Part shown: positions 30,849 through 47,823 of the stretch, one piece after another
How the letters are laid out: every line of letters starts with the position of its first letter
How positions within the stretch are numbered: position 1 is the stretch's first letter
Assembly: GCA_963742755.1 (NCBI GenBank)
Contig: CAVUMU010000002.1
Span: forward strand, 302,265 to 366,264
From: an uncultured Gemmatimonadales bacterium
GTDB taxonomy: Bacteria; Gemmatimonadota; Gemmatimonadetes; Gemmatimonadales; GWC2-71-9
Length of the DNA stretch: 64,000 nt
Direction: 5' to 3'
Program-made: the position numbers and the translations under genes
Notes under the pieces: model-generated
Seen by the model: the letters and a program-made list of their open reading frames with translations, nothing else
Database searches by the model: none
Told to the model about the DNA's origin: nothing

Positions 30849-31532
30849 CTAGAGAATCGCGAGCATGGGGGTTTCGACCGGCTGGAGCTCGAAGGCTTCC
30901 GCCATCCCTGCGATGACGGCCTGACGGGCCTCCTCCCAGAGAGCCGGAGAATCTGCCCGGCGCAGCTCCGCGGCCACGCTGGTCATGGTCACATCCTTGA
31001 TGCCACACGGAACGATGAGATCGAAGTAGGACAGGTCGGTGCTCACGTTGAGGGCAAAGCCGTGGAACGTCACCCACTGCTTCACGTGGATACCGATGCT
31101 TGCGATCTTCCGGCCTTGGGTCCAGACCCCGGTAAGCCCCGGATTTGCTCCCGCCTCGACTCCCAGTTGGCCCAGGCTCCCGATCAGACCCGCCTCAAGC
31201 CGGCGAAGATACCAGTGCAGGTCCTCCCGGTGATGCCGCAGATCTACCACGGGATAGCCCACCAGCTGTCCCGGACCGTGAAAGGTGACGTCACCTCCGC
31301 GCTCCACTTCGAACACCTCGACCCCGCGTCGTTCGAGCTCTGCTCGTGGCAGCGGCAGGCTCTCTGCTCGGGTTCCCCGGCCCAGCGTCACCACCGGATC
31401 GTGTTCCACCAGCAGCAGGACGTCTTCGTCGCTCTCACCCGCGATACGTTGGCGGCACAGGCGTCGCTGCAGCTCCAGTACCTCGGCATAATCCCGCCGG
31501 CCGAGGTCGTGCACGACCAGGCGAGCGGTCAC
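30849..31532 (-). CDS. lipB: lipoyl(octanoyl) transferase
   Basis: Motifs ERGGDVTFHGPGQLVGYP and KIASIGI. Confidence 0.92.
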   Translation of the reverse strand: MTARLVVHDLGRRDYAEVLELQRRLCRQRIAGESDEDVLLLVEHDPVVTLGRGTRAESLPLPRAELERRGVEVFEVERGGDVTFHGPGQLVGYPVVDLRHHREDLHWYLRRLEAGLIGSLGQLGVEAGANPGLTGVWTQGRKIASIGIHVKQWVTFHGFALNVSTDLSYFDLIVPCGIKDVTMTSVAAELRRADSPALWEEARQAVIAGMAEAFELQPVETPMLAIL

Positions 31533-31924
31533 GGGTGCACCTGCGACCTGAGGCGGCGAGCCTGGAAGGCCAGCACCGCGGAGGTCAGGGCGGAGAGGCC
31601 CAGCAAGGTGAGCAGGCCGGCGCGGCCGAAGAGCTCGAAGACCCCGGTGCAGATCAGCATCAGGACGACTGTGGCAAAGGCCGCAACCATGGCCAATCCC
31701 CCACGGCGGTACGCGGACGCGACCGGCTCGAGCAGACGCCAGGCGACGAAGCCGGCAAGGACGAGCCCCGCGATCGTCCCGCAGGCGATCAGGTAAAACC
31801 GAAACTCGAGGTTGGCCTCCCCATGCCGGGAGCGGAGCGTATCGGCGACCAGCACCGTCGCCGTGATTGCGCTCAGACCGGTCAGGACCGCGGACGCGAG
31901 CGCGGCCGCCAGAAACCCCAGCAT
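31529..31924 (-). CDS. hypothetical 4-TM membrane protein
   Basis: Four hydrophobic helices. Coupled to lpdA (1-nt overlap) and lipB (4-nt overlap). Confidence 0.55.
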   Translation of the reverse strand: MLGFLAAALASAVLTGLSAITATVLVADTLRSRHGEANLEFRFYLIACGTIAGLVLAGFVAWRLLEPVASAYRRGGLAMVAAFATVVLMLICTGVFELFGRAGLLTLLGLSALTSAVLAFQARRLRSQVHP

Positions 31925-33321: not shown

Positions 33322-33349
33322 AGTATCCCCTCTAAGAAAAGCGAGTGAT

Positions 33350-33414
33350 GTCACCCTGAGCGTAGCGAAGGGGCCGAAGCGACGCTCTGGCCCCCTCGCG
33401 CTGCTCGGGGTGAC
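33350..33414. repeat. long imperfect hairpin in the pdhC-lpdA spacer
   Basis: GTCACCC/GGGGTGAC, GAGC/GCTC and CGAAGGGGCC/GGCCCCCTCG stems. Confidence 0.7.
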
Positions 33415-33420
33415 AATCTG

Positions 33421-34773
33421 CTACCAGACCAGCGCCAGCGGATTTTCCAGCATCCCCTTCAGCGTCTTGAGAAACTGGGCGCCGGTCGCGCCGTCGATCA
33501 CCCGGTGGTCGCAGGACATGGTGAGCCGCATCCGGCGCCGGATAGCAACCGCGCCCTGGTGCGCCACCGGCTTCTCTGCCATGCGGCCCACCGCCAGAAT
33601 GCCGGTTTCGGGCGGATTGATGATGGCAGTGAACTCCTCGATGTCGAGCATGCCGAGGTTGGAGACCGTAAAGGTGCCGCCGGTGTACTCCTCGGGCTTG
33701 AGCCGCCGCTCCCGGGCCCGGGCGGCCAGATCCCGTGACTCGGTCGCGATCTCCCGCAGGGTCTTCTGGTCGGCGTGACGGATCACCGGGGTGATCAGAC
33801 CTTCCTCGACCGCGACCGCCATGCTCACGTGCACCTCGTTCCAGTAGCGGATGTGATCGTCCTGCCACCAGCTGTTGCAGGCCGGATGCTGCCGCAGAGC
33901 CATGGCCACGGCCTTGATAATGATATCATTGAACGAGACGCTGGCGTCTTTCCCCGCTTCCCCGCTTTCCCGCTTACCCGCCGCGCGAAGCTCTTCGCGC
34001 GCCTCGACTACCCGCTCCATGTCCACCTCGCTGGTGAGGTAGAACGTCGGGACCGGGCCGATCGACTGGGCGAGCCGCCGGGCGATGGTCTTCCGGATTT
34101 GGGTGAGCGGGACATCGGTGTAGGGGGCGCCAGCGGGGCCGCGGGGCAGCGGGGCAGCCGCAGGGCCTGACGACGCGGGTGCCGGTCGGGCGGGACTCGC
34201 CGCAACGGCCGTCTCAAGGTCACGGGCGATGATGCGGCCCTCCGGCCCGGTGCCGGCCACGGCCCCGAGATCCATTCCACGGTCCGCCGCGATCCGGCGC
34301 GCCAGTGGCGAAGCCTTGACCCTGGTGGGGGTGGCCTTGGCCCCGTTTCCTTCGCGCGCGGGCTGCTTTTCCACAGGACGCCGCTCTACCGTGGCCACGG
34401 CGGCTGGTGGCGCGGGCGGCATGGAGACCGGTCGGTCCTTCCCGGGCGATGGCTGCGTGGCTTGTGCCTCTTTGCTGGCCCGTGGCCCCGCGGCCCCGCT
34501 GTCCGTCCGCCCCACTGCCCCGCTTACATCCTCCCCTCGTTCCCCAATGACAGCAACCAGCTCCGAGACTGGTACGGTGGCGCCGGCCTCAACCACGTGC
34601 TTGAGCAGCGTCCCCGCAGCGCGGGCCACGAGCTCCATGACCGCCTTATCGGTCTCCACCTCGGCGAGCACGTCACCCACGGCGACGGTGTCGCCCTCCT
34701 GCTTTTTCCATTCGACCAGGCGCCCTTCCTCCATGGTGGGGGAGAGGGCTTCCATTACGACTTTCGTGGTCAT
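33421..34773 (-). CDS. pdhC: dihydrolipoamide acetyltransferase (E2) of the pyruvate dehydrogenase complex
   Basis: Lipoyl domain (EVETDKAVMEL), a peripheral subunit-binding domain, and a catalytic DHRVIDG. Confidence 0.93.
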   Translation of the reverse strand: MTTKVVMEALSPTMEEGRLVEWKKQEGDTVAVGDVLAEVETDKAVMELVARAAGTLLKHVVEAGATVPVSELVAVIGERGEDVSGAVGRTDSGAAGPRASKEAQATQPSPGKDRPVSMPPAPPAAVATVERRPVEKQPAREGNGAKATPTRVKASPLARRIAADRGMDLGAVAGTGPEGRIIARDLETAVAASPARPAPASSGPAAAPLPRGPAGAPYTDVPLTQIRKTIARRLAQSIGPVPTFYLTSEVDMERVVEAREELRAAGKRESGEAGKDASVSFNDIIIKAVAMALRQHPACNSWWQDDHIRYWNEVHVSMAVAVEEGLITPVIRHADQKTLREIATESRDLAARARERRLKPEEYTGGTFTVSNLGMLDIEEFTAIINPPETGILAVGRMAEKPVAHQGAVAIRRRMRLTMSCDHRVIDGATGAQFLKTLKGMLENPLALVW

Positions 34774-34793
34774 TCTTGAGTCCTGGTTGAAGC

Positions 34794-34893
34794 GCTATTG
34801 GCTATTGGCTATTGGCTATGGGCTGATCCGATGCCGACGAAGCTCCGCTTCCAGGGCGGAACAGCCAAGGGCCAATAGCCAATAGCCAATAGC
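34794..34893. repeat. tandem-heptamer hairpin (GCTATTG)3 / (CAATAGC)3
   Basis: At least 22-bp perfect stem plus an imperfect extension, with a 36-nt loop, between the pdhB stop and the pdhC start. Its unit is closely related to the unit of the 25171 element. Confidence 0.9.
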
Positions 34894-35874
34894 CTACTCC
34901 TTATACAAAACCTGATTCACCGCGCTGACCACTTTCGCCGGATCGGCCTTGGCCGCCTTCTCCAGCTGCTTGTTGTAGGGCATGGGGACATCGGCACCGG
35001 TGACCCTCAGCACCGGGGCGTCGAGCTCATCGAACACCTCGCGCTGAATGGTGTCGACCACCTGGGCCCCGATGCCGGCAAACGGCCAGCCCTCCTCGAC
35101 CACGACGCACCGGTGGGTCTTGGCCACCGAGGTGAGCACCGCTTCAGTGTCCATCGGCCGGATGGTGCGCAGGTCCAGCACCTCGGCCTTGATCCCGTCC
35201 TTGGCCAGCTGCTCCGCCGCTTTGAGCGACACGCCGACGCTCTTCGAGTGGCAGATGATCGTCACATCGCTGCCCTCGAGTTTGATGTCCGCCAGTCCGA
35301 GCGGCACGACATGCTCCCCCTCGGGCACCTCGCCCTTGAGGTTGTACAGCATCTCGCCCTCGATGAAGATGACCGGATTGTCATCCCGGATGGCGCTCTT
35401 CAGTAGCCCCTTTGCATCGGCCGGCGTCGCCGGCATGACCACCTTGAGTCCGGGGATGTGGGCGTACCAGCTCTCGAAGGCCTGGGAGTGCTGCGAGGCG
35501 AGCTGCAATGCAGATCCGCCGGGTCCCCGAAACACCGCGGGAACTCCTACCTGGCCATTCGACATGTAGCGCATCTTCGCGGCCGAGTTGACCAGCTGAT
35601 CGACCGCAAGCAGCGCGAAGTTCCAGGTCATGAACTCGATGACGGGCCGAAGCCCGACCATGGCGGCGCCCACCCCGACGCCCGCGAACCCCAGCTCGGT
35701 GATGGGGGTATCCACCACCCGCATCGGACCGAACTCATCGAGCAGGCCGCGGCTCACCTTGTAGGCGCCCTGATAGACCCCGACCTCCTCGCCCATGAGG
35801 AAGACGTTCGGGTCCCGCTGCATCTCCTCGCGAAGTGCCTGGTTGAGGGCGTCTCTATAGGTCAGAATTGCCAT
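34894..35874 (-). CDS. pdhB: pyruvate dehydrogenase E1 beta subunit
   Basis: Transketolase-like pyrimidine-binding and C-terminal domains, 326 aa. Confidence 0.93.
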   Translation of the reverse strand: MAILTYRDALNQALREEMQRDPNVFLMGEEVGVYQGAYKVSRGLLDEFGPMRVVDTPITELGFAGVGVGAAMVGLRPVIEFMTWNFALLAVDQLVNSAAKMRYMSNGQVGVPAVFRGPGGSALQLASQHSQAFESWYAHIPGLKVVMPATPADAKGLLKSAIRDDNPVIFIEGEMLYNLKGEVPEGEHVVPLGLADIKLEGSDVTIICHSKSVGVSLKAAEQLAKDGIKAEVLDLRTIRPMDTEAVLTSVAKTHRCVVVEEGWPFAGIGAQVVDTIQREVFDELDAPVLRVTGADVPMPYNKQLEKAAKADPAKVVSAVNQVLYKE

Positions 35875-35884
35875 AGGTGATCCC

Positions 35885-35948
35885 GGTGAACGGTGAACGG
35901 TAAACCGGATGCGCGGTAGCAGGCCGGTTCACTGTTTACCGTTTACGC
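35885..35948. repeat. tandem-heptamer hairpin (GTGAACG/GTAAACG units)
   Basis: GGTGAACGGTGAACGGTAAACCGG pairs with CCGGTTCACTGTTTACCGTTTAC, with transition mismatches. The right arm contains the pdhA stop. Confidence 0.8.
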
Positions 35949-36969
35949 TGTTTTCTTCCGCGTAGACGTCCTGGTACAGCTCCTCCGGCGCGGGGTCCGG
36001 TGCCTGATCGGCGAACTGGTAGGCGTCCTCGACCTCCTCCAGCACATCCTTGTCCATGGCCCGCACCGCGCTTTCATCCATCAGCCCGTCCGCGATCAGG
36101 CGCTGGGACCAGACGGAGATCGGGTCGCGCTTGCGCTGGTCTTCCACTTCCTCGCGGGTGCGATAATGGCCGTGAATGGGGTCGGACATCGAGTGGCCCA
36201 TGAAGCGGTAGGTGCGGACTTCGAGCAGGGTGGGGAGCTTCTCGTTCCTGGCCCGTTGTACCGCCCGGTCCATGGCGGCGTTCATGGTCAGCACATCCTG
36301 TCCGTCGACCACCTCGTTGGCCATGTCGTAGGAGCAGGCTCGCTCGGAGATGTCGTACAGGGCGCTGGCCCGCTCGAGCGCGGTGCCCATGCCGTAGCGA
36401 TTGTTCTCGCAGAGGTATATGGCGGGCAGCTTCCAGAGCGCCGCCATGTTGAGCGCCTCGTGGAAGGCGCCGTTATTGACGGCGGCCTCGCCGAAGTAGC
36501 AGACCGCCACCTGGCTGGTTCCCCGATACTTGGCGGCAAACGCCATCCCGGTGGTCAGCGGGATGTGGCCTCCCACGATGCCGTGGCCGCCCAGGAAGCC
36601 CAGGGAGGCGTCGAACAGGTGCATCGAGCCACCCTTGCCACCGGTGCAGCCCGCTGCCTTGCCGAACAGCTCGGCCATGACCGCCTGGGACGAGATCCCC
36701 CGGGCCAGCGCGTGGCCGTGCTCGCGGTAGGAGCAGGTGATGTAGTCATCCGGCCCCAGCGCGGCGAGGCTGCCGACCGCCACCGCCTCCTGGCCGATAT
36801 AGAGATGGCAGAAGCCACCGACCTTGCCCAGGCTGTACGCCTCGCCGGCCTTCTCCTCGAAGCGGCGGATCAGCAGCATCTGGCGCAGCCAGTGCCGGTA
36901 CTCCTCGGCGCGGCCGGCGTCGAGACCCTTGGACTTGGCGGTGGTGCGGGCGGCGGTCGATCCGGCCAC
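35929..36969 (-). CDS. pdhA: pyruvate dehydrogenase E1 alpha subunit
   Basis: TPP-binding motif (GDGA-type): GEAAVNNGAFHEALNMAALWKLPAIYLCENN. The GTG at 36969 overlaps the lipA stop (TAGTG). The longer track ORF overlaps lipA. Confidence 0.9.
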   Translation of the reverse strand: MAGSTAARTTAKSKGLDAGRAEEYRHWLRQMLLIRRFEEKAGEAYSLGKVGGFCHLYIGQEAVAVGSLAALGPDDYITCSYREHGHALARGISSQAVMAELFGKAAGCTGGKGGSMHLFDASLGFLGGHGIVGGHIPLTTGMAFAAKYRGTSQVAVCYFGEAAVNNGAFHEALNMAALWKLPAIYLCENNRYGMGTALERASALYDISERACSYDMANEVVDGQDVLTMNAAMDRAVQRARNEKLPTLLEVRTYRFMGHSMSDPIHGHYRTREEVEDQRKRDPISVWSQRLIADGLMDESAVRAMDKDVLEEVEDAYQFADQAPDPAPEELYQDVYAEENSVNGKQ

Positions 36970-37901
36970 TACGCGTGCTCGGGGCGCGCGGAGCGCGCCT
37001 GCTCCCAGGCGTGGTACGACGACCGGGTGAGGGGGCTGGCTTGGACGTGCGAGAACCCCATGCCGAGGCCCACATCGCGCAGCTCGTCGAACTCCTGGGG
37101 AGTGTAGTAGCGGGCTACCGGCATGTGACTCCCGGAGGGGCGCAGATACTGGCCCAGCGTGAGGATGTTGACGTCGCTGGAACGGAGGTCCCGCATGCAG
37201 GTGATCACCTCGTCCCACTCCTCGCCCATGCCGAGGATCACCCCGGACTTGGTGAGCCCATCGGGGGCCATGCGGCGCGCGTTGGCCAGCAATCGAAGCG
37301 CCCGGTCGTAGCGGCCCCCGGGCCGCGCCATGCGATAGAGACGTTCGGCAGTCTCGAGGTTGTGATTGAGAATGTCGGGCCGGGCCTCCATCACGATGCC
37401 GAGCGCCTGCTCGGAGCCCTTGAAGTCCGGGATGAGTACCTCGACCGTTGTCTCCGGCAGACGCCGCCGGATCTCGGTGATGCAGCCGGCAAACGCTTCC
37501 GCGCCGCCGTTGGGCAGATCGTCGCGATCAACCGAGGTGATCACGACATGCTGAAGGCCCATGCGAGCCACCGCTTCTGCCAGCCGCAGCGGCTCCAGCT
37601 CGTCGAATGCCTTCGGGGTGCCGTGGGCAACCGCGCAATAGGTACAGTTGCGGGTGCAGACGTCGCCCAGAATCATGAAGGTGGCGGCCTCGTGCTCCCA
37701 GCACTCGCCCACGTTCGGGCAGCGGGCCTCCTCACAGACCGTGTGGAGGCCAAGCTCGCGCATCATTCCCTTCAAGCGGACATAGTTGGCGCCGCCGGGG
37801 GCCTTCACCTTGAGCCAGCCGGGCTTCCGGGCGGGAACCAAGGGGGCAGGGCTCGCGTTGGTGGAACCCGATCGCGTCAGTTGGACCAGCGGAACTGCCA
37901 C
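36969..37901 (-). CDS. lipA: lipoyl synthase
   Basis: Radical-SAM CTRNCTYC plus the auxiliary cluster CEEARCPNVGEC. The GTG at 37901 follows a GAGGAG RBS. Confidence 0.93.
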   Translation of the reverse strand: MAVPLVQLTRSGSTNASPAPLVPARKPGWLKVKAPGGANYVRLKGMMRELGLHTVCEEARCPNVGECWEHEAATFMILGDVCTRNCTYCAVAHGTPKAFDELEPLRLAEAVARMGLQHVVITSVDRDDLPNGGAEAFAGCITEIRRRLPETTVEVLIPDFKGSEQALGIVMEARPDILNHNLETAERLYRMARPGGRYDRALRLLANARRMAPDGLTKSGVILGMGEEWDEVITCMRDLRSSDVNILTLGQYLRPSGSHMPVARYYTPQEFDELRDVGLGMGFSHVQASPLTRSSYHAWEQARSARPEHA

Positions 37902-37974
37902 TATCTCCTCACCAGTTGGTGCCTGCCTGCTAGTAGGTTCGACCGGAAAACTAGCAGGGGCGGCCAGCCGGGAG

Positions 37975-38388
37975 CTAGCTGCGACACCGGTCCAGCAGCG
38001 CCTGTGCGTCGGCCTTGACCAAGTCGGATGCCCGCTCCTGCACCTCGGTCGGACCCCGCTGCGTGGTGTATTCCGCGAAGGTGCGGGGCAGCACCTCGAT
38101 GCTCGTTTGTCCCTCGGCCGTGGCCGAGACGTCAACGTCCAGCTTGTCCTGGATGCGGCGGAATTGCACGTCAGGCCGGCGCGACTTGGAGTCGATCTTG
38201 GTGGCGGTGACCCGGAGATCGTCGGCGTCGTTCGAGGTCTGCCGGTAGCCCAGCGCTCCGAGCTGTTTCTTCACGCATGCGAAGGTATCGTCGGGACCCG
38301 CCGCCGTCCGGGTATTCACCGGAGTGGAAAGCGCCTTGCCGCATCCTGACAGGAGCACGGCCATGCCGAGGAACACGCGGTAAAGCAT
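37975..38388 (-). CDS. hypothetical lipoprotein
   Basis: Lipobox LLSGC, 137 aa. Confidence 0.5.
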   Translation of the reverse strand: MLYRVFLGMAVLLSGCGKALSTPVNTRTAAGPDDTFACVKKQLGALGYRQTSNDADDLRVTATKIDSKSRRPDVQFRRIQDKLDVDVSATAEGQTSIEVLPRTFAEYTTQRGPTEVQERASDLVKADAQALLDRCRS

Positions 38389-38463
38389 CGACTGCTCCAG
38401 GGTTGAGTGAGGGTGGCGGTAATGTACCCAAGGTCAACCGGCGCCGCTCCTGAAGGGACTCCG

Positions 38464-38497
38464 AAAAAACGACGGCCCCTCGAACGGGAGGCCGTCG
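38464..38497 (-). terminator. intrinsic terminator after the porin gene
   Basis: On the minus strand, CGACGGCC...GGCCGTCG is followed by TTTTTT. Confidence 0.7.
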
Positions 38498-38521
38498 TGG
38501 ACCGCGGTAAAAGGTTGTGCG

Positions 38522-39709
38522 CTAGAAGAACAGCATCAGGCCGACGGCTGGAGCGATGGACTTGTTATCGTCGCTGAGATCGCTGTCGTCTCCGGTAACG
38601 GCATAGTTGAATTCGCCGACCGCCTTGAGCGACTTGGTGGCCTGATAATAGATGCCACCCGAAGCCAGCCAGTTCTTGGTCTTGAAGGCGGGTTCGCTGT
38701 CGGAGTTCTCCAGGATGCTGATGCCCCAGCTGCCGGCCACCGTCACCTTGCTGTTGGCCGGAGTAAAGGTCACCTGACCGATCCCGCCCATGGACTTCCG
38801 CAGGTCATCGCCCAGGGTCCCGCCTGTGCCGAGGTTGAACAGCAGGGTGGTTCCGAGACCCTTGCCGTAATAGCCGCTGGCCGTGAGCGAGAACGTCGGA
38901 TTACCGAAGCGCACACCACCAGTGCCGCCCCAGGACGTGGCCTTCTCGTCGGCTACGCCGCCGGTGCCGTTGTTCTGCACCAGACCGCCGACCCAGACCT
39001 TGGTGTTTCCGGCCGCCCACACACCCTCGGCCTCCAACCGCGGGAGCTCGATGGTGGTGTACGGCCCATTGCTGGCCGGATCGAACACGCCGATCGAAAG
39101 CTGGAACGGCCGGCCTGCCGCCGTGCTGTAGGTCATCTGGGCCTTGAACTGCGGATAGATGTACCCGAAGCCGATGCGCCCGAGGGTCGTGCCGCCGGAG
39201 ATTTGGCCACCCGTGGCGCCGACGCCAAACAGGGTCTGGTCGGTCAGGATGTTCTGCCGGCCGAAGAGACCGAGCTCGCGACCCGCGAGAATCTGGCCCC
39301 ACGCCCCGCCGACGGTCAGGTACACCTGACGCATGTCGATCTGGGCGCCGAAGCAGTCATGAAAGACCTGTCCGGTGAGCGGATCGCCGCCGCACTGAAT
39401 CTGTGGCGCGAATCCGAAGTGAACGCCGAGATCGGTGTTGCCCTCCTTGCCCTTCGCATCGAATACCGCAAAGGCCGGGAGCAGCCCGGTGCGGATCCGG
39501 GTGGCACCCTCGCCGCCTCCGGCAACGATGCCGCCGGGCGTCGCGGTCGGGGCCGCGTTATCACTCGGCTTCTCGTAGACCAGGAAGGCATTGACGTTCC
39601 CGCCAAAGGTGAAGCTCCAGCCATTACTCATCTGCATCGTCAGCTGTGCCTCGGCGGCGCTGGCCGCTCCCATCACCAAGCCCATACACAACAGTGCGAC
39701 TCGCTTCAT
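38522..39709 (-). CDS. outer-membrane porin
   Basis: Signal peptide ...SAAEAQ, beta-strand periodicity, and a C-terminal ...VGLMLFF. An intrinsic terminator follows. Confidence 0.75.
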   Translation of the reverse strand: MKRVALLCMGLVMGAASAAEAQLTMQMSNGWSFTFGGNVNAFLVYEKPSDNAAPTATPGGIVAGGGEGATRIRTGLLPAFAVFDAKGKEGNTDLGVHFGFAPQIQCGGDPLTGQVFHDCFGAQIDMRQVYLTVGGAWGQILAGRELGLFGRQNILTDQTLFGVGATGGQISGGTTLGRIGFGYIYPQFKAQMTYSTAAGRPFQLSIGVFDPASNGPYTTIELPRLEAEGVWAAGNTKVWVGGLVQNNGTGGVADEKATSWGGTGGVRFGNPTFSLTASGYYGKGLGTTLLFNLGTGGTLGDDLRKSMGGIGQVTFTPANSKVTVAGSWGISILENSDSEPAFKTKNWLASGGIYYQATKSLKAVGEFNYAVTGDDSDLSDDNKSIAPAVGLMLFF

Positions 39710-39797
39710 AGGTACGTCTCCCTCGAGTAAGGATGACCGCCAACGACTGCTTAACTTCGGGATCAAAGCCACGACTTGATCAAAAGCTCCAGCAATG

Positions 39798-40199
39798 TTA
39801 CGGCAGTGTATCGGTAATCGGCCGGCCAAGTGCGGTGTTCACCTCCAGGAAAGCGTGCCACGTGGGCAGGGGGACGTGGTTTTTCCACCAGTAGAAATCA
39901 CTGATGCGACTCGAATACACATTGGCACTGTAGGGAAAGCGAAGCCGGTCATTCCGGCTCAGCTTCTCGATGGCCATCCGAACCTGGGCTGAGTCCCGGG
40001 CGCCGGCGGCGGCCTGACCCAGCGCCGCGCCGGCAAGGAACCCCTCGACATAGGCCAGCCGTACGTCCGGCTTCATCTGTCGCCAGTCGGCGCCGTTCAC
40101 GCCGAGCCAGGGACGAGGGGGATCCTGCCGGGACCAGGCGGATCCTGCCAGGGCTCCCACCACCAGCAGGGTCATCCAGAACCACCGTGTGACTGCCAT
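39798..40199 (-). CDS. hypothetical exported protein downstream of the PQQ dehydrogenase
   Basis: Signal-like MAVTRWFWMTLLVVGALAGSAWS. No heme (CxxCH) or EF-hand motifs. An alternative GTG start lies at 40223. Confidence 0.5.
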   Translation of the reverse strand: MAVTRWFWMTLLVVGALAGSAWSRQDPPRPWLGVNGADWRQMKPDVRLAYVEGFLAGAALGQAAAGARDSAQVRMAIEKLSRNDRLRFPYSANVYSSRISDFYWWKNHVPLPTWHAFLEVNTALGRPITDTLP

Positions 40200-40265
40200 A
40201 GTTCTCGTGCACCGGACCGGCAAGGAACCCGAATCACGGGATCCCGGCCGGCCGACACGGATGAC

Positions 40266-41930
40266 TTACCTCTTGGCTGCTGCCCGCTTCGGAAGACCGA
40301 AGACGAGGATGTCGTCGCCCAGTGGATAGCTGAGCTGGAAGTTGCCGCCACAGGCCACGGCAATAAACTGCTCGCCACCGTGCATGAACGTCATGGGCGC
40401 GGAGTTACAGCCGGCGCCGCCATTGAACTGCCACAGCAGCTTCCCGGTCTTCGAATCGTAGGCGTTGAAGTTGCCGTTCCCTTCACCGGTAAAGGTGAGG
40501 CCGGTGGACGTAGCGAGGGCGCCGCCCATCATGGGCTGGGGTACCTTGTTCTGCCAGGCAATCTTGCCGGTCTTGAGGTTGACCGCGGAGTAGAGCCCGT
40601 ACTGCTCTTCACCCGGAATGGCCACGAAGGCCGATCCGAGCCAGAGCTTGCCTTTCTCGTACGGGGCCGAGTGGGTGATGTAGTTCATCGGCTGGTGCAG
40701 GCCGGCCACGAAGGCGTAGCCGAGGGTAGGATCGACCGCGATGGGAGACCACTCCGCGCCGCCGTTGGCACCCGGAAGCATGCGGGTACCCTTGTCGCTC
40801 GGCAGGGCGAACATGTTCTCCTGAGGCGTAAAGTTGTCCGTCTTGCGGATCAGCTTCCCGGTGGCGGCATCGAGGACGTAGACCCACGCCGTCTTGCCGG
40901 CATGCACGACGGCCTTCTTACCGCCCACGTTCACGACTACCGGCGGAGAGGTGGCGTCGAGGTCCCAGACATCGTGCGGGACGGTCTGGTAATACCAGTT
41001 GGTCTTGCCGGTGGTGGCATCGATCGAGACGACCGCGTCGGTGTAGAGGTTGTCCCCCGGGCGGATGCTGCCATCCAGGTCGGGCGAAGGATTGCCGACC
41101 GAGACGAAGATCGCATTGAGTTCCTTGTCATACGCCGGAGTCGTCCACACGCCGCCGCCGCCGGTCTTCCACGCGTCGGCGTACTTGGCGCTGTCGGCCT
41201 TTTCCTTGGCGATGTCGCGGTGCAGGTCGTGGTCTTCCGCCTTCGGGGCCCAGGTACCCCACCAGCCGTTGGGGGCCTTGTCGTCGAAGGTGGGATCGCC
41301 CTGGGGGGCGGGAATCGAATACCAGCGCCAGACCTGGTCGCCGCTGACCGCGTTATAGGCGGTGACGTGACCGCGGATGCCGTACTCGCCGCCCGAGACC
41401 CCGATGATCACATTGTCGCCAACGATGAGTGGGGCGTGGGTGATGCTGTAGCCGAAGGCGGGATCGGCCACTTCCTTGTCCCAGAGCACCTTGCCGGTCT
41501 TTCCCTCGAAGGCCACCAGATGGGCGTCGAGGGTGCCCATGTAGACGTGGGGGCCGTGCATGCCAAAGCCGCGGTTGTTCGGTCCGCAGCAGGTGATGGT
41601 CGTGCCCAGCTTGTGCTCGTAGCGCCAAAGCTCCTTGTTGGTATTGAGATCGTAGGCCATGGCGGTGTTGTACGGGGTGGTCACGTACATGATGCCGTTG
41701 GAGACGAGCGGGGTGTTCTCGAACGAGCCCAGCTTGGAGATACCGGTCTGGAAGATCTTGCGGGGCACCAGCTGCGAAACGTTTGCTGGGGTGATGAGCT
41801 TCAAGGTCGAGTACCGCTGATTCCAGTCGTTACCGCCGTAAGTGGTCCAATCGCCTTTTCCTTGCGCGCTCAACGGGCTGGCAACAGCTAGAAGCACAGG
41901 GGCCACCCACCAACGAGAACAGATCCTCAT
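40266..41930 (-). CDS. PQQ-dependent alcohol/methanol dehydrogenase, XoxF/ExaF-like (lanthanide-type motif)
   Basis: Signal peptide, vicinal Cys pair TITCCGPNNRG, eight-bladed propeller W motifs, and PHDVWDLDA carrying Asp-x-Asp (40956-40964). Confidence 0.88.
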   Translation of the reverse strand: MRICSRWWVAPVLLAVASPLSAQGKGDWTTYGGNDWNQRYSTLKLITPANVSQLVPRKIFQTGISKLGSFENTPLVSNGIMYVTTPYNTAMAYDLNTNKELWRYEHKLGTTITCCGPNNRGFGMHGPHVYMGTLDAHLVAFEGKTGKVLWDKEVADPAFGYSITHAPLIVGDNVIIGVSGGEYGIRGHVTAYNAVSGDQVWRWYSIPAPQGDPTFDDKAPNGWWGTWAPKAEDHDLHRDIAKEKADSAKYADAWKTGGGGVWTTPAYDKELNAIFVSVGNPSPDLDGSIRPGDNLYTDAVVSIDATTGKTNWYYQTVPHDVWDLDATSPPVVVNVGGKKAVVHAGKTAWVYVLDAATGKLIRKTDNFTPQENMFALPSDKGTRMLPGANGGAEWSPIAVDPTLGYAFVAGLHQPMNYITHSAPYEKGKLWLGSAFVAIPGEEQYGLYSAVNLKTGKIAWQNKVPQPMMGGALATSTGLTFTGEGNGNFNAYDSKTGKLLWQFNGGAGCNSAPMTFMHGGEQFIAVACGGNFQLSYPLGDDILVFGLPKRAAAKR

Positions 41931-42199
41931 GGGCACTCTCCTCAGGGGCAAGTCTGGATGGGAAGAATCGGTTGCTCGGTCATGGAGACGGCTCGGTGCC
42001 GCCCGGGAGAAGCCCCCTGCGGCCACCACTAACTTCGGCGCTGGAAGTGTTTTAACGGGTTACAATTTGATTACACCGCTGGCTGCGTCAAGCCCCAGTT
42101 CCCCTACCGTGGCCGGGCAATTCATGGAATAATGATGCAACTTTATGGAGTGCAACCGTTTGCGCGCTTAGGCAGGGTATCGGCCGGTAGGATCAGAAT

Positions 42200-42337
42200 T
42201 CATCGGAAGAGCACGGCGGCCTTCTTAACCGTCTGCCAGATCCCCCAAAGGAGGGGTAACGTCACCGGCAGCCACGCCAGAACGACCATGACCCAGCTGC
42301 TATCCGAGCGCCGGTCCGACGCGTCGTTGGTGGCCAC
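42200..42337 (-). CDS. 45-aa membrane peptide, candidate MFS transporter small subunit (not in ORF track)
   Basis: AAGGAG RBS, GTG start. VATNDASDRRSDSSWVMVVLAWLPVTLPLLWGIWQTVKKAAVLFR has one TM helix with a W..P..WG motif. It lies downstream of the OFA transporter. Confidence 0.5.
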   Translation of the reverse strand: MATNDASDRRSDSSWVMVVLAWLPVTLPLLWGIWQTVKKAAVLFR

Positions 42338-42420
42338 AGTCGGCTCCTTGGGTGCTCAGCAAGTTGAGGCGTAAGGCGCAATAATATGCGGTGAGCCTTG
42401 GGTTTTATGCAACGGGGGGC

Positions 42421-43908
42421 TCAGCCACGCTGCCCGGCCTGGAGCGCCCTGGCGGCCGCCAGCTCCTCGGCCGTCATGTGGTACCCGGGGTGCACCGGCT
42501 TCACCATCAGATTACAGATCAACCCTATCACCAGCAGTCCGGCCAGCACGAACATCGTGACGTTATACGCCTGTGCTGTGGGCACCCCGCGCTCGATCTG
42601 GTACTCCCTGATGTAGTTCACCAGGACCGGTCCGAGCACACCCGCGGTGGACCAGGCGGTGAGCAAACGGCCGTGAATCGCGCCCACATACTGGGTGCCG
42701 AAGATGTCGGCCAGATACGCGGGGATGGTGGCGAATCCCCCTCCATACATGGTCAGGATGATGCAGAAGAGGACGACGAAGAGGGTGACGCTGCCGGTCC
42801 GGCCAGCGAACGGGGCCGTCCCGTAGAGCACGAAACCCAGGGCGAAGAAGACCAGGTAGGTGCGTTTCCGGCCGATGTAGTCGGAAAAGGAGGCCCAGCC
42901 GATCCGGCCGGCGATATTCGAAAGACTGAGCAAGGCCGCGAAACCGGCGCCGATGCTGGCAAGCTGGACTTTCTGCTCCGGAGTGAGCTGCTGCAGGGTT
43001 CCCGGAACTCCAAGCAGGCGGCCACCGAAAATCTCCTGGATCATCGGCGATGCGATACCGATGACGCCGATGCCCGCGCTCACGTTCATGCACAATACCA
43101 TCCAGAGGAACCAGAACTGCGGCGTCCGCCAGGCCCGGCTCACGTGGACGTTCCCACTGGTGATCATGCCGGTGCGCTGGGAGCTGGGCGTCCATCCAGC
43201 CGGCTTCCAGTCCGGTGGCGGCACCCGGTACCCGAAGGCCCCGGCCATCATGGTAATGAAGTAGAGGGCGCCCAGGGCGACGAAAGTCTGCCATACACCA
43301 ACTGACGTCGGAGTCGTGAAGTGGCGCATGAGGATGTCGGCCAGTGGAGCTCCGATCATCGTGCCTCCGCCGAATCCCATGATGGCCATCCCTGTCGCCA
43401 TGCCGCGGCGGTCGGGAAACCACTTGATCAGGGTGCTGACCGGTGAGATGTAGCCCAGCCCCAGCCCGCAGCCGCCGATGACGCCGGAGCCGAGCCAGAG
43501 CAGCCAGATCTGGTGGAGGTAGATTCCCAGTGCGGAGATGAAGAATCCCGTCGACCAGCAGACGGCGGCCACCACGCCGGTTCTCCGCGGTCCCACCCGT
43601 TCGACCCAGGGCCCGAACAGCGCCGCCGACGAGCCGAGGAAGACGAAGAAGAGGGTGAACATCCAGCCGAGCTCGCTGATCTTCCAGTCACAGTCGCGGG
43701 TGACGAGCAGTTGGAAGAAGCCCATGTCGGCCGGGCACGGCCTGGACTCCGTCAGGCCGACGGCCCGGCTCAGCGGCAGCCAGAACACGCTGAATCCGTA
43801 CGCCATGCCGATGGACAGGTGAATGGCGAGTGCGGCCGGAGGCACCAGCCACCGGTTGTACCCCGGCCTGGCGACGGTCCGTTCCCTCGAAAGCAATCCC
43901 GCCATCAC
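42421..43908 (-). CDS. MFS transporter, oxalate/formate antiporter (OFA) family
   Basis: 12-TM MFS. The N-terminal YNRWLVPPAALAIHLSIGMAYGFSVF is typical of the OFA family. Confidence 0.85.
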   Translation of the reverse strand: MMAGLLSRERTVARPGYNRWLVPPAALAIHLSIGMAYGFSVFWLPLSRAVGLTESRPCPADMGFFQLLVTRDCDWKISELGWMFTLFFVFLGSSAALFGPWVERVGPRRTGVVAAVCWSTGFFISALGIYLHQIWLLWLGSGVIGGCGLGLGYISPVSTLIKWFPDRRGMATGMAIMGFGGGTMIGAPLADILMRHFTTPTSVGVWQTFVALGALYFITMMAGAFGYRVPPPDWKPAGWTPSSQRTGMITSGNVHVSRAWRTPQFWFLWMVLCMNVSAGIGVIGIASPMIQEIFGGRLLGVPGTLQQLTPEQKVQLASIGAGFAALLSLSNIAGRIGWASFSDYIGRKRTYLVFFALGFVLYGTAPFAGRTGSVTLFVVLFCIILTMYGGGFATIPAYLADIFGTQYVGAIHGRLLTAWSTAGVLGPVLVNYIREYQIERGVPTAQAYNVTMFVLAGLLVIGLICNLMVKPVHPGYHMTAEELAAARALQAGQRG

Positions 43909-44017
43909 GATTCTCCTGGGTTATGTTCCTGCGGAGGCGACGGCGGGTGTCATTTCCCCCGCGGCGATTTCAGCTACGAAGGTACAGACGACCCTATTCC
44001 GGGACCAGAGCACCGCA

Positions 44018-44626
44018 ATGATTCAGCTCCCTCCCTCTCTTCTCATCACCTCGGCGGCCGCGGCGTTGACTGTGGCCATGGGCTGCTCCGGACGGGGCCA
44101 GGCGGCCGCGAGTGCCCCGGCTCCGGCGCCACCGGCCCGAGAGGCGGCCACGCCGGCTCCAGGAGCCGGCGACACCGCGGCCGTGCCGTCCTGGATGACC
44201 GTGGACAGTGCGGCCAGGGTGGTCACATTGTCGCTCGAAATTACCGCCCCACCCGGAGCGCCGTCGGCACTGATCAACGGCTATCGCGCCGGAGAGGCCC
44301 GCATCGTCGTGCCGCTCGGCTGGACGGTCAAATGGGATTGGCGCTCGGCCGACTCGACCGCCCCCCACAGCCTGGTGGTGATGGTGCAGCGGGAGAAGAT
44401 TCCGCTGGAGGGCGGCCGCGCCTCGTTCAGCAATGCCATGACCCGGGCGGTTGTCGAGGGACTCCGTCCGGGCCAGAACGATCAGACCATCTTCGTTGCC
44501 GATGAAGCCGGCTGGTACTGGCTGCTGTGCGGGGTACCGGGGCACGCCATCAAAGGCGAATGGCTGGAGCTACGGGTGGATCCGGAGGCGAAGCTGCCGA
44601 ACGTGGTCGTCAAGAACAAGGCGTGA
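44018..44626 (+). CDS. sulfocyanin-like cupredoxin lipoprotein with Glu at the axial-ligand position
   Basis: Lipobox VAMGC. Copper ligands are APHSLVV and CGVPGH-AIKG-E(W), where sulfocyanins have GMW. The Glu codon is at 44558-44560. Confidence 0.7.
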   Translation: MIQLPPSLLITSAAAALTVAMGCSGRGQAAASAPAPAPPAREAATPAPGAGDTAAVPSWMTVDSAARVVTLSLEITAPPGAPSALINGYRAGEARIVVPLGWTVKWDWRSADSTAPHSLVVMVQREKIPLEGGRASFSNAMTRAVVEGLRPGQNDQTIFVADEAGWYWLLCGVPGHAIKGEWLELRVDPEAKLPNVVVKNKA

Positions 44627-44686
44627 GCGGTAAGCGGTAAGCGGGACACAGCCCCTCCTCCCCTTCACCGCCTCACTGCTTACGCT
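44621..44686. repeat. tandem-heptamer hairpin (GTGAGCG/GTAAGCG units)
   Basis: GCGTGAGCGGTAAGCGGTAAGCGG pairs imperfectly with CCGCCTCACTGCTTACGC. Both convergent genes stop inside the arms. Confidence 0.8.
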
Positions 44687-45869
44687 TTTCACCTAAAAGT
44701 CTCTCAATTTCGACCTCGAACTCCCGCGCCTGCCGCTGGTGTTGGTCCCCTGCCGCCAGGCCGTGGAAGCCGGCGTGCACCCGGCGCACCCGGCCATCGC
44801 GACCCAGAAAGACTAGCGTCGGAAAGGCACCGGCCCCCTGAAGCTGGGGCAGCGCCGCCTCGATGCCCTCGACGTCGTTGGTTCCGGCCAGGAGCAGGGG
44901 GAAGGGAATGCGGAACTTGTCGCGGTAGCGGCGCACCAACGGCGCGTCCACGGCCGGGTCGCCGGTGACCTCGAAGGCCAGACCCACGATCTCCAGTCCC
45001 CGTCCACGATACCGATTATAGAGCTCGATCAGCCCCGGCATTCCTTCGTGACAGGTGGGGCACCAGGTCCCGAAGATGTCGACCAGGACGACTTTTCCCT
45101 TGAAGCGCGGGTCGTCGTTCCCCACCAGGCGGCCCTGAAGATCGGGGAAGCGAAACCGGAACGGCGCGGTGGTGTCGGCAGAGGTGATCTCGGTCGGAGA
45201 CTTGAGATGGGCCGCTCCGGTGCTGCGCACCGCCTGCCACGGTGTCTGGGTTCTCAGTCCGGCGTGAAAAATCCCCCGCAGCGTATCGCCGTGGAGCTTG
45301 CCGGTGATGAGGTAGACGAACGAGCCGTCGAAGTATCCGATCGCGAAGCTGTCAGCCGAAGCGGTCCCCGAGAACGGCCCATAGTCCGAGGTGCTGGAGA
45401 TGAGGGTTCCCTCGATGCCGCCGGGTCCGTTGCGAAACTCGAAGACGCGCGGGCTGGTTTCCAGGTCCTGGAAGAAAGTCGCGTCCCAGCGGCCCACCAG
45501 CTTCCTGGAGGCCTTACTGATCGGCCAAGGGCGGCGCGCTGCCCGGAATGGAATGGTGCGCGGCCCGTTGCTGCCGATGTTGCGGTAATATCCGATCAGC
45601 GAGTCGCGCCGGACGGCGGCCTTTATGGTCGCAGCATAGTCGGCGATTTCGAGAACCACGCTGTCGCCTTCCACTCGCACGGCCGAGAACGGCTGGGACT
45701 TCTGCCCGTTCCAAAGCCTCCCCAGCCAGTCGCCATCTTCATTGTGCCCGACTTGCACCGTAAACGGCAGGGGACCGCCTGCGAGGTCCAGCACGGCCCG
45801 CCAGGTCCCCCTCGGCGAAGAAACTACCGCCAGGCCAAGCGCGGCCTGGATCGCCAGGACGAGCATCAT
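44673..45869 (-). CDS. TlpA/redoxin-family thiol:disulfide oxidoreductase with N-terminal extra domain
   Basis: The C-terminal thioredoxin fold carries WCPTC. ATGATG overlap with the upstream stop. Confidence 0.8.
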   Translation of the reverse strand: MMLVLAIQAALGLAVVSSPRGTWRAVLDLAGGPLPFTVQVGHNEDGDWLGRLWNGQKSQPFSAVRVEGDSVVLEIADYAATIKAAVRRDSLIGYYRNIGSNGPRTIPFRAARRPWPISKASRKLVGRWDATFFQDLETSPRVFEFRNGPGGIEGTLISSTSDYGPFSGTASADSFAIGYFDGSFVYLITGKLHGDTLRGIFHAGLRTQTPWQAVRSTGAAHLKSPTEITSADTTAPFRFRFPDLQGRLVGNDDPRFKGKVVLVDIFGTWCPTCHEGMPGLIELYNRYRGRGLEIVGLAFEVTGDPAVDAPLVRRYRDKFRIPFPLLLAGTNDVEGIEAALPQLQGAGAFPTLVFLGRDGRVRRVHAGFHGLAAGDQHQRQAREFEVEIERLLGEKRKQ

Positions 45870-46696
45870 TCCGCCGGCTGGTCGGGCACGACTTGGAGGC
45901 CGCCCCCCGAGTAGCGCTCTCCTGCCCGGATAGCGGCAGGCACGGTGTTGCCCCGCCATGGCGCGGGACAGGGGTATACCGAGCTGTAGGCGCAGAACGG
46001 ATTCCGGGCCCGGTTGAAGTTCAGCCGGAACAGGCCGTTTGAAAGCGGGTGCAGGCTGACGAATCGGCCTGCCGGATAGGTCCCGTCTCCGTTGCTCTCG
46101 TCGCGGAAGTAGATCTCCAGGTCCGACTCATTACCGCCCGCAAACGGGATACGCAGCACGCGAAGCGAGGTCCGTCCGCCAAGCGGCACGACGACGCTAC
46201 CCACCTCGGTAGCCTCGACCTCGATTCCGTCGGAGGCAAGGACGCGTATTGACTGAGGAGTCTTGAGTCGGATGAGAGGCCCAGTAAACACCATCGAGGG
46301 GTCGTAATCGTAGTAGCCCGGCGGCTCTTTGCCGGCCTGGTCGGTGAACACGGACAGAACCGTCCCCCGCTGAGAGCCGGTGAGATACAGCGCATATTTC
46401 CCGATCCGATACGGCCCGCCACGGCCGATGGGTCGCTTGTCGTCTGACCCTTCGAGAACGACGCCTGTGCCACTCGGGTAGACTCGATACTCATCGATCC
46501 CCGGCAGCGGAATGTCCGCATCCCCCGGTCCCAGTCGGAGCCCATCGCCGACCTTTTGCCGCGCAACGGCCGACAGCGGCGAGTTGAGTCCCTTCTTGAG
46601 CCAATCAACGTAGCCGGTTCGTTCCATGACCACGTCAGGCGGCGCCTGTGCCGCGAGCGTCGATGCAAGAAGAACCAACGGAAGAAAGCGAGTCAT
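45866..46696 (-). CDS. DUF1684 domain protein
   Basis: Signal peptide, and the motif NFNRARNPFCAYSSVYPCPAPWRGN typical of DUF1684. Confidence 0.75.
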   Translation of the reverse strand: MTRFLPLVLLASTLAAQAPPDVVMERTGYVDWLKKGLNSPLSAVARQKVGDGLRLGPGDADIPLPGIDEYRVYPSGTGVVLEGSDDKRPIGRGGPYRIGKYALYLTGSQRGTVLSVFTDQAGKEPPGYYDYDPSMVFTGPLIRLKTPQSIRVLASDGIEVEATEVGSVVVPLGGRTSLRVLRIPFAGGNESDLEIYFRDESNGDGTYPAGRFVSLHPLSNGLFRLNFNRARNPFCAYSSVYPCPAPWRGNTVPAAIRAGERYSGGGLQVVPDQPAE

Positions 46697-46725
46697 ATAG
46701 TCAGGATAATACAGATAGCTTCGTC

Positions 46726-47823
46726 TCAGAATCGGTCTGGAGCGAATGCCTGCAATCCGACACCCGGCGGCTCCCCGTCCATCAACTGCCGGAGGAGCAC
46801 TCCAGTAATGCCCGCCAGCAGTATGCCGTTTCGTCCATGTCCAGTCGCGTACCACAGCCCCCTCATGGTGGGCTCACGGCCGATGATCGGCATGCCGTCC
46901 GGCGTCATGGGGCGGAGTCCGGCCCAGGTTCGCCGTACCTTGGCCCTGATGAGGCTGGGGGACAGCAGCATGGTGGCCGCAAAGATCTGGGCCAGGCCCG
47001 CGGAGGTGACTTCGGGCCGGAACCCCACGGGTTCCATGGTCGAGCCGATGATCGCCTCACCAGCCCGGGCCAGGATATAGGAATGGTTGTGGTAGACGAT
47101 TGCTCGGGGCACCGCGGCAGGCCAGGGGAGCGCGGCCATCTGACCGCGCACCGGTTCGACCGGCAGTGGCCGGGGGAGATTCTGCAGCTGGCCCGACCAG
47201 GCCCCCGCAGCGACCAGGACGTGCTCGCTGGAGTAGCGCCCGGTCTCCCCGCCCACTCCCGTCAGTTTGTCTCCTGCCCGCTCTAGCCTGAGGGCCCGAT
47301 CATCGACTACGACCGCGCCGAGCCGCAGCGCGTCGGCCAGCAGGGCCTGGACCAGCCGTTCGGGATCGAGTGCGCCATCCCGGGGCGCCCACAGCGCGCC
47401 GAGGGTCGGGCCCAGCCAGGGCCAGCGCCGGCGAACCTCGTCCCGCTCCAGCCACTCACACGCATAGCCCTGTTGCTGTTGCCACGCTACCTTCGACCCC
47501 AGCGCGGCCGCCTCGACATCGGTGCCGGCCATCCGGGCTATGCCCTCCTGCCAAAGGCCCACATCGACACCGGTTGTCTCATGAAGGGCGGCCGCCAGCG
47601 GTTGGTACAGGTCCCGCGCGGCCAGGCCAAGGGTGAGGAGCTGGTCGCTCGCGTCCGCCTCGATCTGCGGAGCAAGCAGCCCCCCGGCCGCTCGCCACGC
47701 CTGCCCGTGCTGGCCGCCGGGTTCCAGGATGAGGACGGTGCGACCGGTTGACGCCAGCTCTCGGGCGCAGGCAGCCCCCATGGCGCCGCCTCCGATCACG
47801 ATCACATCGTACGCGGGGCTCAC
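46726..47823 (-). CDS. FAD-dependent oxidoreductase (glycine oxidase ThiO / DAO family)
   Basis: The dinucleotide fold begins YDVIVIGGGAMGAACAREL. GGLLAPQIEA is ThiO-like. Confidence 0.75.
   Translation of the reverse strand: MSPAYDVIVIGGGAMGAACARELASTGRTVLILEPGGQHGQAWRAAGGLLAPQIEADASDQLLTLGLAARDLYQPLAAALHETTGVDVGLWQEGIARMAGTDVEAAALGSKVAWQQQQGYACEWLERDEVRRRWPWLGPTLGALWAPRDGALDPERLVQALLADALRLGAVVVDDRALRLERAGDKLTGVGGETGRYSSEHVLVAAGAWSGQLQNLPRPLPVEPVRGQMAALPWPAAVPRAIVYHNHSYILARAGEAIIGSTMEPVGFRPEVTSAGLAQIFAATMLLSPSLIRAKVRRTWAGLRPMTPDGMPIIGREPTMRGLWYATGHGRNGILLAGITGVLLRQLMDGEPPGVGLQAFAPDRF

Follow-up and report, generated by a model that had tools for sequence, protein, structure and literature searches.

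The window analysed here is a stretch of 64,000 nucleotides from an uncultured soil bacterium of the Gemmatimonadales (GenBank assembly GCA_963742755.1, contig CAVUMU010000002.1, positions 302,265 to 366,264), and our subject is one of its genes, which encodes an exported dehydrogenase of the pyrroloquinoline quinone (PQQ) family. Our reading is that the product would be a periplasmic alcohol or aldehyde dehydrogenase that works with a lanthanide and PQQ and passes its electrons to a cupredoxin, a small blue-copper protein; we give this whole picture a probability of about 0.55. A cupredoxin is proposed as the partner because three observations point the same way: cupredoxin domains are fused to relatives of the enzyme, a cupredoxin gene is found inside the operon in part of the orthologous loci, and another cupredoxin gene, cupA, is a conserved neighbour. 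An earlier note on this DNA had described the enzyme as XoxF/ExaF-like, with the lanthanide-type Asp and with no cytochrome or XoxJ partner, and had suggested a non-canonical alcohol or C1 oxidation module with a copper protein as electron acceptor.

The gene starts with an ATG at 41930, with a GGAG Shine-Dalgarno sequence 7 nt ahead of it. The N-terminus is a classical signal peptide (MRICSRWWVAPVLLAVASPLSA/QG), and for this reason the shorter start is likely the correct one; the mature enzyme then comprises residues 23-554. The protein matches the PQQ beta-propeller family of Pfam with 267.6 bits (PF01011, cut-off 26.7). Against the methanol/ethanol family of NCBIfam (TIGR03075) it scores 432.5 bits, under the cut-off of 480.05, where the true XoxF of the same genome scores 693.4; within that family, then, it is divergent. 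Membership in Acido-empty-quinoprotein group A (TIGR04528) was ruled out, with 329 bits against a cut-off of 650 and with pqqA-E present in the genome. A Pfam scan found the propeller and no cupredoxin domain in the enzyme itself, and its 554 residues contain neither a CxxCH motif nor a C-terminal haem c domain.

How does the active site compare with those of solved enzymes? The motif TITCCG holds the vicinal pair Cys114-Cys115, and PHDVWDLDA holds Asp323 (codon 40964-40962) and Asp325 (codon 40958-40956); both motifs and the positions of both Asp codons are as the earlier note gave them. Glu182 lies in SGGEYG and Asn280 in VGNPSP, and Arg120, Trp262 and Lys346 are also present. Among the solved structures, HMMER ranks PedH first (6zcv/6zcw, E = 4.7e-82), followed by ExaA (1flg, E = 2.5e-76), the quinohaemoprotein alcohol dehydrogenase ADH IIB (1kv9, E = 4.6e-75) and XoxF (6dam, E = 2e-72). 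In these alignments Cys114, Cys115, Arg120, Glu182, Trp262, Asn280 and Asp323 match their counterparts, and Lys346 occupies the place of an Arg in PedH and XoxF and of a Lys in ADH IIB. The pair Asp323 and Asp325 overlays 'WDFDG' of PedH and 'WDYDG' of XoxF, and at the position of Asp325 the Ca-type ExaA has Ser ('WDFSG') and ADH IIB has Thr ('WDFTA'). As Asp325 thus falls on the Asp that binds the lanthanide in PedH and XoxF, the second Asp sits at the metal-ligand position, and on this point the earlier note was right. All ten residues checked are invariant in the 80 orthologous loci that we compared, which all come from Gemmatimonadales and have 76-95% identity, and the D-L-D motif is kept in 120 of 120 homologue clusters. 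Judged from these residues, it is highly probable that the dehydrogenase uses a lanthanide.

The same motif would have another meaning if the D-x-D pair occurred here without lanthanide dependence and the enzyme used Ca2+ or were metal-promiscuous. The marker is a sequence correlate, and for the superclade of the enzyme described below metal use is predicted from sequence; moreover, a Leu stands between the two Asp, where XoxF and PedH have an aromatic residue, and the near relative P0122 has D-L-S instead of D-L-D. Still, we regard this alternative as quite improbable, because Asp325 aligns with a proven lanthanide ligand and its invariance extends from the loci and clusters above to the fused sister family. 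Further, the genome encodes two other lanthanide-type XoxF enzymes, and lanthanide motifs have been described in 15 clades of eight-bladed PQQ enzymes from the same phyla (preprint 10.64898/2026.07.10.737718).

To which branch of the family does this lanthanide-type enzyme belong? When 1.84 billion cluster representatives were searched exhaustively with HMMER, the closest full-length relatives beyond its own orthologue group proved to be at most 47% identical to it. A maximum likelihood tree of 125 sequences was built with IQ-TREE (LG+G4, SH-aLRT support), as a quick search under a single-matrix model. It contains full-length representatives, three close orthologues, the two paralogues from this genome and eight reference enzymes; the reference sequences were rebuilt from PDB alignments, with ExaA short by 8 residues. 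The dehydrogenase and its orthologues form one clade (support 100), which is sister to P0125 (support 81) and, one step deeper, to the cupredoxin-fused P0123 (support 99). All of these are nested in a superclade of 51 sequences (support 97) with no characterised enzyme in it. The XoxF/MxaF enzymes, including both genome paralogues, fall together with PedH/ExaA and ADH IIB in the opposite half of the tree (support 99), and the XoxF/MxaF clade itself (support 100) leaves the dehydrogenase outside. Grouping the enzyme with PedH/ExaA was rejected by the approximately unbiased (AU) test (p = 0.00027, delta lnL 179), and forcing it to be the sister of the whole XoxF/MxaF clade cost 69.6 log-likelihood units, a placement that is not formally rejected (AU p = 0.089). 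From the tree and the AU tests, therefore, the dehydrogenase is neither one of XoxF1-5 nor a PedH/ExaF, and the label 'XoxF/ExaF-like' has to be given up in the phylogenetic sense. As the tree places it, it is a member of an uncharacterised, Gemmatimonadales-wide orthologue group that is sister to fusions of a propeller with a blue-copper protein; the deep placement of this branch is uncertain.

Two oddities were seen among the relatives. In one sizeable subclade of the superclade (P0129, P0133, P0134, P0141, P0146, P0147, P0163 and P0185), Gly replaces the catalytic Asp (W-G-x-D) and the +2 Asp is kept; most of its members retain the Cys-Cys pair. Judged by the motif, these propellers would be without the proposed catalytic base. 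Another relative, P0126 (1155 aa), has a membrane domain of PMT type (dolichyl-phosphate-mannose transferase-like) fused at its N-terminus.

The first indication of the electron acceptor comes from the fusions. Among the best 150 representatives, 9 have a C-terminal cupredoxin motif, and Pfam confirmed a cupredoxin domain in all seven of the fusions scanned: SoxE in P0124 and P0197, Copper-bind in P0130, P0209, P0238 and P0267, and Cupredoxin_1 in P0158. For P0123, SoxE is given by database annotation. Every one of the eight fusions long enough for the tree sits in the superclade of the dehydrogenase, and on the 125-sequence tree the fusion appears to have been gained about seven times, with these three Pfam types. 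The SoxE-fused family is a large one: grouped at 90% identity it numbers more than 60 clusters, of which many are from Gemmatimonadaceae. In 39 of its clusters the CC pair, Glu, Asn, D-x-D and Lys of the propeller are invariant, as are the copper ligands His660, Cys715, His720 and Met725. There is no cytochrome near the two fused relatives whose surroundings were read. At one fused locus (L100:4075-6799), the PQQ-dehydrogenase::sulfocyanin gene has as neighbours a gene for a TonB-dependent receptor, which was called as two pieces, and one for a 116-aa protein without a family, an arrangement that recalls the pairs of lanthanide receptor and small periplasmic protein reported in preprint 10.64898/2026.07.10.737718.

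The second indication comes from separate cupredoxin genes. At about 21 of the 80 orthologous loci, the dehydrogenase gene is separated from the gene that usually follows it, which encodes a 133-aa protein (u133), by a Met-type sulfocyanin-like gene on the same strand (cupB; CGVPGHGLSGMW). Two second-copy loci in another context (L079 and L084) carry a gene of this Met type some 2 kb upstream of the dehydrogenase. The locus of the present genome has no such operonic Met-type copy; a Met-type lipoprotein paralogue is encoded elsewhere in this genome (contig C3, 61137-61583), and five relatives that also have no operonic copy each have one or two orthologues of it (66-84% identity). Third, cupA stands beside the dehydrogenase locus in 73 of the 80 loci. 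In the window it is divergent from the transporter gene and convergent with the redoxin gene that flank it. An alignment compared cupA with its Met-type paralogues and with fused domains; the cupredoxin domain of the sulfocyanin fusions is of the SoxE type, as are cupA and cupB. The ligands of cupA are His-Cys-His, with a conserved Glu at the usual position of the axial Met (CGVPGHAIKGEW). Its C-terminal loop reads CGVPxHxxxGE[W/Y/F], and every orthologue read across Gemmatimonadales retains the Glu; in two cupA orthologues the ligand Cys is replaced by Asp.

Taken together, a cupredoxin is probably the electron acceptor of the dehydrogenase, as far as fusions and gene order can tell. By analogy with the fusions and the operonic genes, a Met-type protein seems more likely to be the direct acceptor than cupA; with its axial Glu, cupA could act as an additional carrier whose potential is shifted, or could do something else. 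The copper acceptor proposed in the earlier note thus gains from the fusions and from the roughly 21 operonic Met-type genes, and it loses in that the cupredoxin of the window is Glu-axial and not Met-type.

Is there any haem partner at hand? In the 64-kb window no c-type cytochrome gene was found by a CxxCH scan of open frames of at least 80 aa. Three CxxCH motifs occur: one is the thioredoxin site of the redoxin (WCPTCH), and the other two lie in frames with low GC at third codon positions that are unlikely to be coding, one of them overlapping lipB out of frame. No XoxJ is present in the window either, the sole one in the genome being at C11:47699-48406, so the lack of a local cytochrome or XoxJ that the earlier note reported stands. 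Across the whole assembly (3.45 Mb, 11 contigs), a search for cytochrome cL with TIGR03872 gave weak hits of 32 and 25 bits and none over the cut-off. The pqq genes, which the earlier note had proposed to look for, were found: contig C10 has pqqB, C, D and E and a PqqA-like peptide MSWTKPEAEVVAVTMEVTAYVATL. A crude regular-expression scan of the six frames of the genome found no clustered EF-hand loops like those of lanmodulin.

A canonical cluster of xoxF, xoxJ and cytochrome c genes lies on C11 (46199-51874). Its XoxF scores 757 bits to XoxF1 of M. extorquens (6oc5) and is followed by XoxJ (TIGR03871, 259.8 bits), a mono-haem cytochrome c of 146 aa and a YVTN beta-propeller protein. The cytochrome is XoxG-like (47142-47582) and has weak matches to methanol-related and PedF cytochromes. 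Such a canonical xox pair elsewhere, if co-regulated, was what the earlier note had named as speaking against its proposal. The pair does exist, but it has its own true XoxF, and the dehydrogenase of the window is therefore an additional, different enzyme. A third PQQ dehydrogenase, XoxF-like and with the motif HDNWDYDA, is encoded on C3 (29851-34960), and a dihaem cytochrome c (CDGCH, CTACH) follows it. Besides these, pentapeptide-repeat genes lie downstream of the C11 xox cluster, and just upstream of its xoxF is a gene of the GHMP-kinase fold whose resemblance to beta-RFAP synthase was seen by eye only, as was that of nearby genes to PabA/PabB. If these likenesses are true, the organism may be methylotrophic through the methanopterin pathway. 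Nothing links the dehydrogenase of the window to C1 substrates, and the C1 part of the earlier proposal is dropped.

From these data a scenario for the lanthanide- and copper-dependent route can be drawn. A substrate would enter the periplasm, perhaps through the porin of the predicted operon, and would be oxidised at a lanthanide-PQQ centre formed by Glu182, Asn280, Asp323 and Asp325 with PQQ. The two electrons would be passed on singly to a sulfocyanin-like cupredoxin tethered to the membrane, and not to a cytochrome c, and would go from there to a terminal oxidase; the candidate acceptors in this genome are the adjacent Glu-axial cupA and the Met-type paralogue on C3. The acid formed may then enter the cell by the monocarboxylate transporter of the major facilitator superfamily (MFS) that is encoded upstream.

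What weighs against this scenario? The superclade is without a characterised member, and metal, substrate and acceptor are each argued from sequence and context. The cupA next to the enzyme has a Glu and not a Met as axial residue and lies on the opposite strand to the dehydrogenase, and its redox role is putative. The AlphaFold2 (AF2) model of a fused relative has a predicted template-modelling score (pTM) of 0.73 and a flexible linker of 31 residues, and it is silent on docking. Some members of the superclade are fused to cytochrome c and not to a cupredoxin. Cytochromes c that could serve are encoded elsewhere in the genome, namely the 146-aa protein and one of 158 aa (37805-38281) on C11 and the dihaem protein on C3. 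The whole neighbourhood of 10 genes, reaching from thiO to lipA, is a conserved feature of the 80 loci, which belong to one order. Contexts were also read for two fused relatives and three unfused ones that lie beyond the orthologue group, and none of them has an MFS gene, porin or u133 nearby.

The points about cytochromes would fit an ordinary haem-coupled PQQ alcohol dehydrogenase, which donates to a soluble cytochrome c encoded elsewhere, for example the XoxG-like protein of C11, with cupA unrelated to it. Unlinked acceptors are common among PQQ dehydrogenases, the three unfused relatives just mentioned stand alone on their contigs, and the adjacency of cupA may be inherited synteny. We nevertheless consider this explanation unlikely, because it is precisely in the superclade of the dehydrogenase that fusions to cupredoxins of three Pfam types recur, the nearest fused family is sister to its clade (support 99), and an operonic cupredoxin gene is found in about a quarter of the orthologous loci. 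Further, no cytochrome c gene stands beside the dehydrogenase or its close relatives in the loci whose open reading frames or called genes were read. The single nearby cytochrome c, at locus L104, is about 4 kb off and is encoded on the other strand, next to a nos-type propeller gene.

The genes around the dehydrogenase are listed in the table. Along the minus strand come, in this order, MFS transporter, its small subunit, a gap, dehydrogenase, u133, porin-like gene and a terminator-like hairpin.

Table. Features of the dehydrogenase locus, with positions counted from the first nucleotide of the window
Feature	Position	Strand	Remarks
Intrinsic-terminator-like hairpin	38469..38498	(-)	11-bp stem then TTTTT, just past porin stop codon
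Outer-membrane porin-like beta-barrel, last operon gene	38522..39709	(-)	PF13609 Porin_4, weak 29.2 bits; 61/80 loci
u133, 133-aa exported or membrane-anchored all-alpha protein	39798..40199	(-)	Follows dehydrogenase in 56/80 loci
PQQ dehydrogenase, exported, eight-bladed	40266..41930	(-)	554 aa; Cys114-Cys115, Glu182, Asn280, Asp323-Leu-Asp325, Lys346
Dehydrogenase leader/promoter region, 269 nt	41931..42199	(-)	Conserved block ATTGTAACCCGTT at 42066-42054; GC-rich hairpin ~41990-42020
MFS transporter small subunit, 45 aa	42200..42337	(-)	NF047966, 40.8 bits (cut-off 24)
MFS monocarboxylate-type transporter (OFA/SfMCT-like)	42421..43908	(-)	72/80 loci
cupA, sulfocyanin-like cupredoxin lipoprotein, SoxE-type	44018..44626	(+)	PF06525, 52.1 bits
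TlpA/ResA-like periplasmic thiol:disulfide oxidoreductase (WCPTC)	44673..45869	(-)	PF08534, NF002854; 63/80 loci

The neighbours named by the earlier note are all present: the 133-aa exported protein, the porin (with a weak score), the OFA-type MFS transporter with its small subunit, the cupredoxin and the redoxin. Since a strong terminator-like hairpin follows the porin, the genes of dehydrogenase, u133 and porin look like one operon. The conserved block and the hairpin of the leader are common to related loci in an alignment of 33 upstream regions. No Rfam family was found for the leader, a scan of 37800-46800 giving a chance-level match alone (E = 0.67), and a scan for sigma-70 promoters found none. 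The protein u133 has no match in Pfam or NCBIfam and no paralogue in the genome. Its orthologues share 20 invariant residues, mostly aromatic, and its AF2 model is all-alpha with a mean predicted local distance difference test score (pLDDT) of 82.5; a Foldseek comparison of the model with the PDB gave no fold match (best E = 6.1). A lanthanide-binding protein would be expected to have an acidic cluster, and u133 has none. The MFS transporter scores 313.6 bits with the SfMCT L-lactate transporter family (NF049980, cut-off 320) and 142 bits with the OFA family (TIGR00890). The redoxin could possibly keep the cysteine of the copper site reduced for metal loading of the cupredoxin. Downstream of the operon (30849-38135, minus strand) lie lipB, dihydrolipoamide dehydrogenase, pyruvate dehydrogenase E2, E1 beta and E1 alpha, and lipA, an ordinary housekeeping block that is syntenic in relatives.

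Does this gene order have a functional meaning? As the neighbourhood is conserved throughout one order, adjacency by itself is weak evidence for a linkage of cupA, MFS transporter or redoxin to the enzyme, and the adjacency of these genes and of the porin may be inherited gene order and not functional linkage. In its full form, this explanation holds that dehydrogenase, u133, porin, MFS transporter and cupredoxin are a vertically inherited series of genes in Gemmatimonadales and no functional module at all. It draws on the fact that similar conservation reaches lipA, thiO and a lipoprotein gene, on the 269-nt gap between the MFS unit and the dehydrogenase, and on the fact that relatives beyond the orthologue group have no MFS gene, porin or u133 near them, because of which the roles of porin and MFS transporter would follow solely from operon structure within one order. 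Against it, dehydrogenase, u133 and porin are tightly spaced on one strand with the strong terminator at their end, and where a cupredoxin gene was inserted in a subclade, it landed between dehydrogenase and u133. On balance we think it rather unlikely that no module exists.

Why would a copper acceptor matter? Current predictions give lanthanide-dependent PQQ enzymes the dominant part in the alcohol oxidation of soils, and the lanthanide PQQ types studied are XoxF and PedH/ExaF only, with cytochrome c partners. Lanthanide-motif PQQ enzymes in Gemmatimonadota have already been reported (PMC10875860; 10.64898/2026.07.10.737718), and the 'PQQ-ADH type 8' of Keltjens is abundant in this phylum according to a 2026 preprint (10.64898/2026.07.10.737718). 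For coupling or fusion of a PQQ dehydrogenase to a cupredoxin or sulfocyanin, we found no description in the literature searched, which did not cover subscription journals. The orthologue of the dehydrogenase occurs in at least 80 species representatives of Gemmatimonadales and in hundreds of soil metagenome clusters. If the copper acceptor is real, a large share of the oxidation of volatile alcohols in soil would take an undescribed electron route, one that differs in redox potential and in the metals it demands (lanthanide and copper, no haem). It would be a 'quino-cuproprotein' route of periplasmic alcohol oxidation, for which we found no description. Going further, there may be a widespread soil branch of lanthanide-type PQQ dehydrogenases without haem that donate directly to fused, operonic or nearby blue-copper proteins, in Gemmatimonadales including a Glu-axial cupredoxin; we put this generalisation forward tentatively, at slightly less than even odds. 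The fused relatives would offer a single-polypeptide system for electron transfer from PQQ to copper, with a possible use in bioelectrocatalysis.

Compared with known systems, the best-scoring solved relative is PedH of Pseudomonas putida KT2440, taken here together with the ExaF-type lanthanide-dependent quinoprotein ethanol dehydrogenases. The dehydrogenase shares with it the eight-bladed propeller, the Cys-Cys pair, the Glu/Asn/Asp/Asp ligands with the +2 Asp, the periplasmic location and the lack of a haem domain. It differs in its separate clade, in having Lys346 where PedH has Arg, and in its neighbours, which are cupredoxins, a porin and the helical u133 and not a gene for cytochrome c550 (PedF/ExaB). 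With the XoxF clades 1-5 (6oc5, 4mae, 6dam) it has the superfamily and the lanthanide-type D-x-D in common; unlike them, it scores 207-248 bits to XoxF structures, is without the XoxF C-terminal extension and has no adjacent XoxJ/XoxG. The type II quinohaemoprotein alcohol dehydrogenases (ADH IIB, 1kv9; ADH IIG, 1yiq) have Lys at the Arg/Lys position, as the dehydrogenase does. Their natural acceptor is azurin (review, PMC8348568), which sets a precedent for copper proteins as acceptors of PQQ enzymes. Unlike the dehydrogenase, however, the quinohaemoproteins route electrons first through their own haem c domain, and their +2 residue is Thr and not Asp. The fused relatives mimic this quinohaemoprotein layout of propeller, flexible linker and redox domain, with a cupredoxin as the redox domain.

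The closest likeness is to these PQQ-dehydrogenase::sulfocyanin fusions themselves (PF01011+PF06525, e.g. P0123), found in Gemmatimonadaceae and other soil bacteria, which are sister to the dehydrogenase at 47% identity. They share with it the invariant CC, E, N, D-x-D and K, and their cupredoxin is of the SoxE type like cupA and cupB. Unlike in the fusions, the dehydrogenase here is unfused, and the copper proteins are lipoproteins of their own, the adjacent one with a Glu for the axial Met. A more distant parallel is methylamine dehydrogenase. It is unlike the enzyme of the window in its tryptophan tryptophylquinone (TTQ) cofactor, its other fold family and its active site without metal; it is likewise a periplasmic quinoprotein, and amicyanin, which takes electrons from it, is a dedicated cupredoxin encoded beside it.

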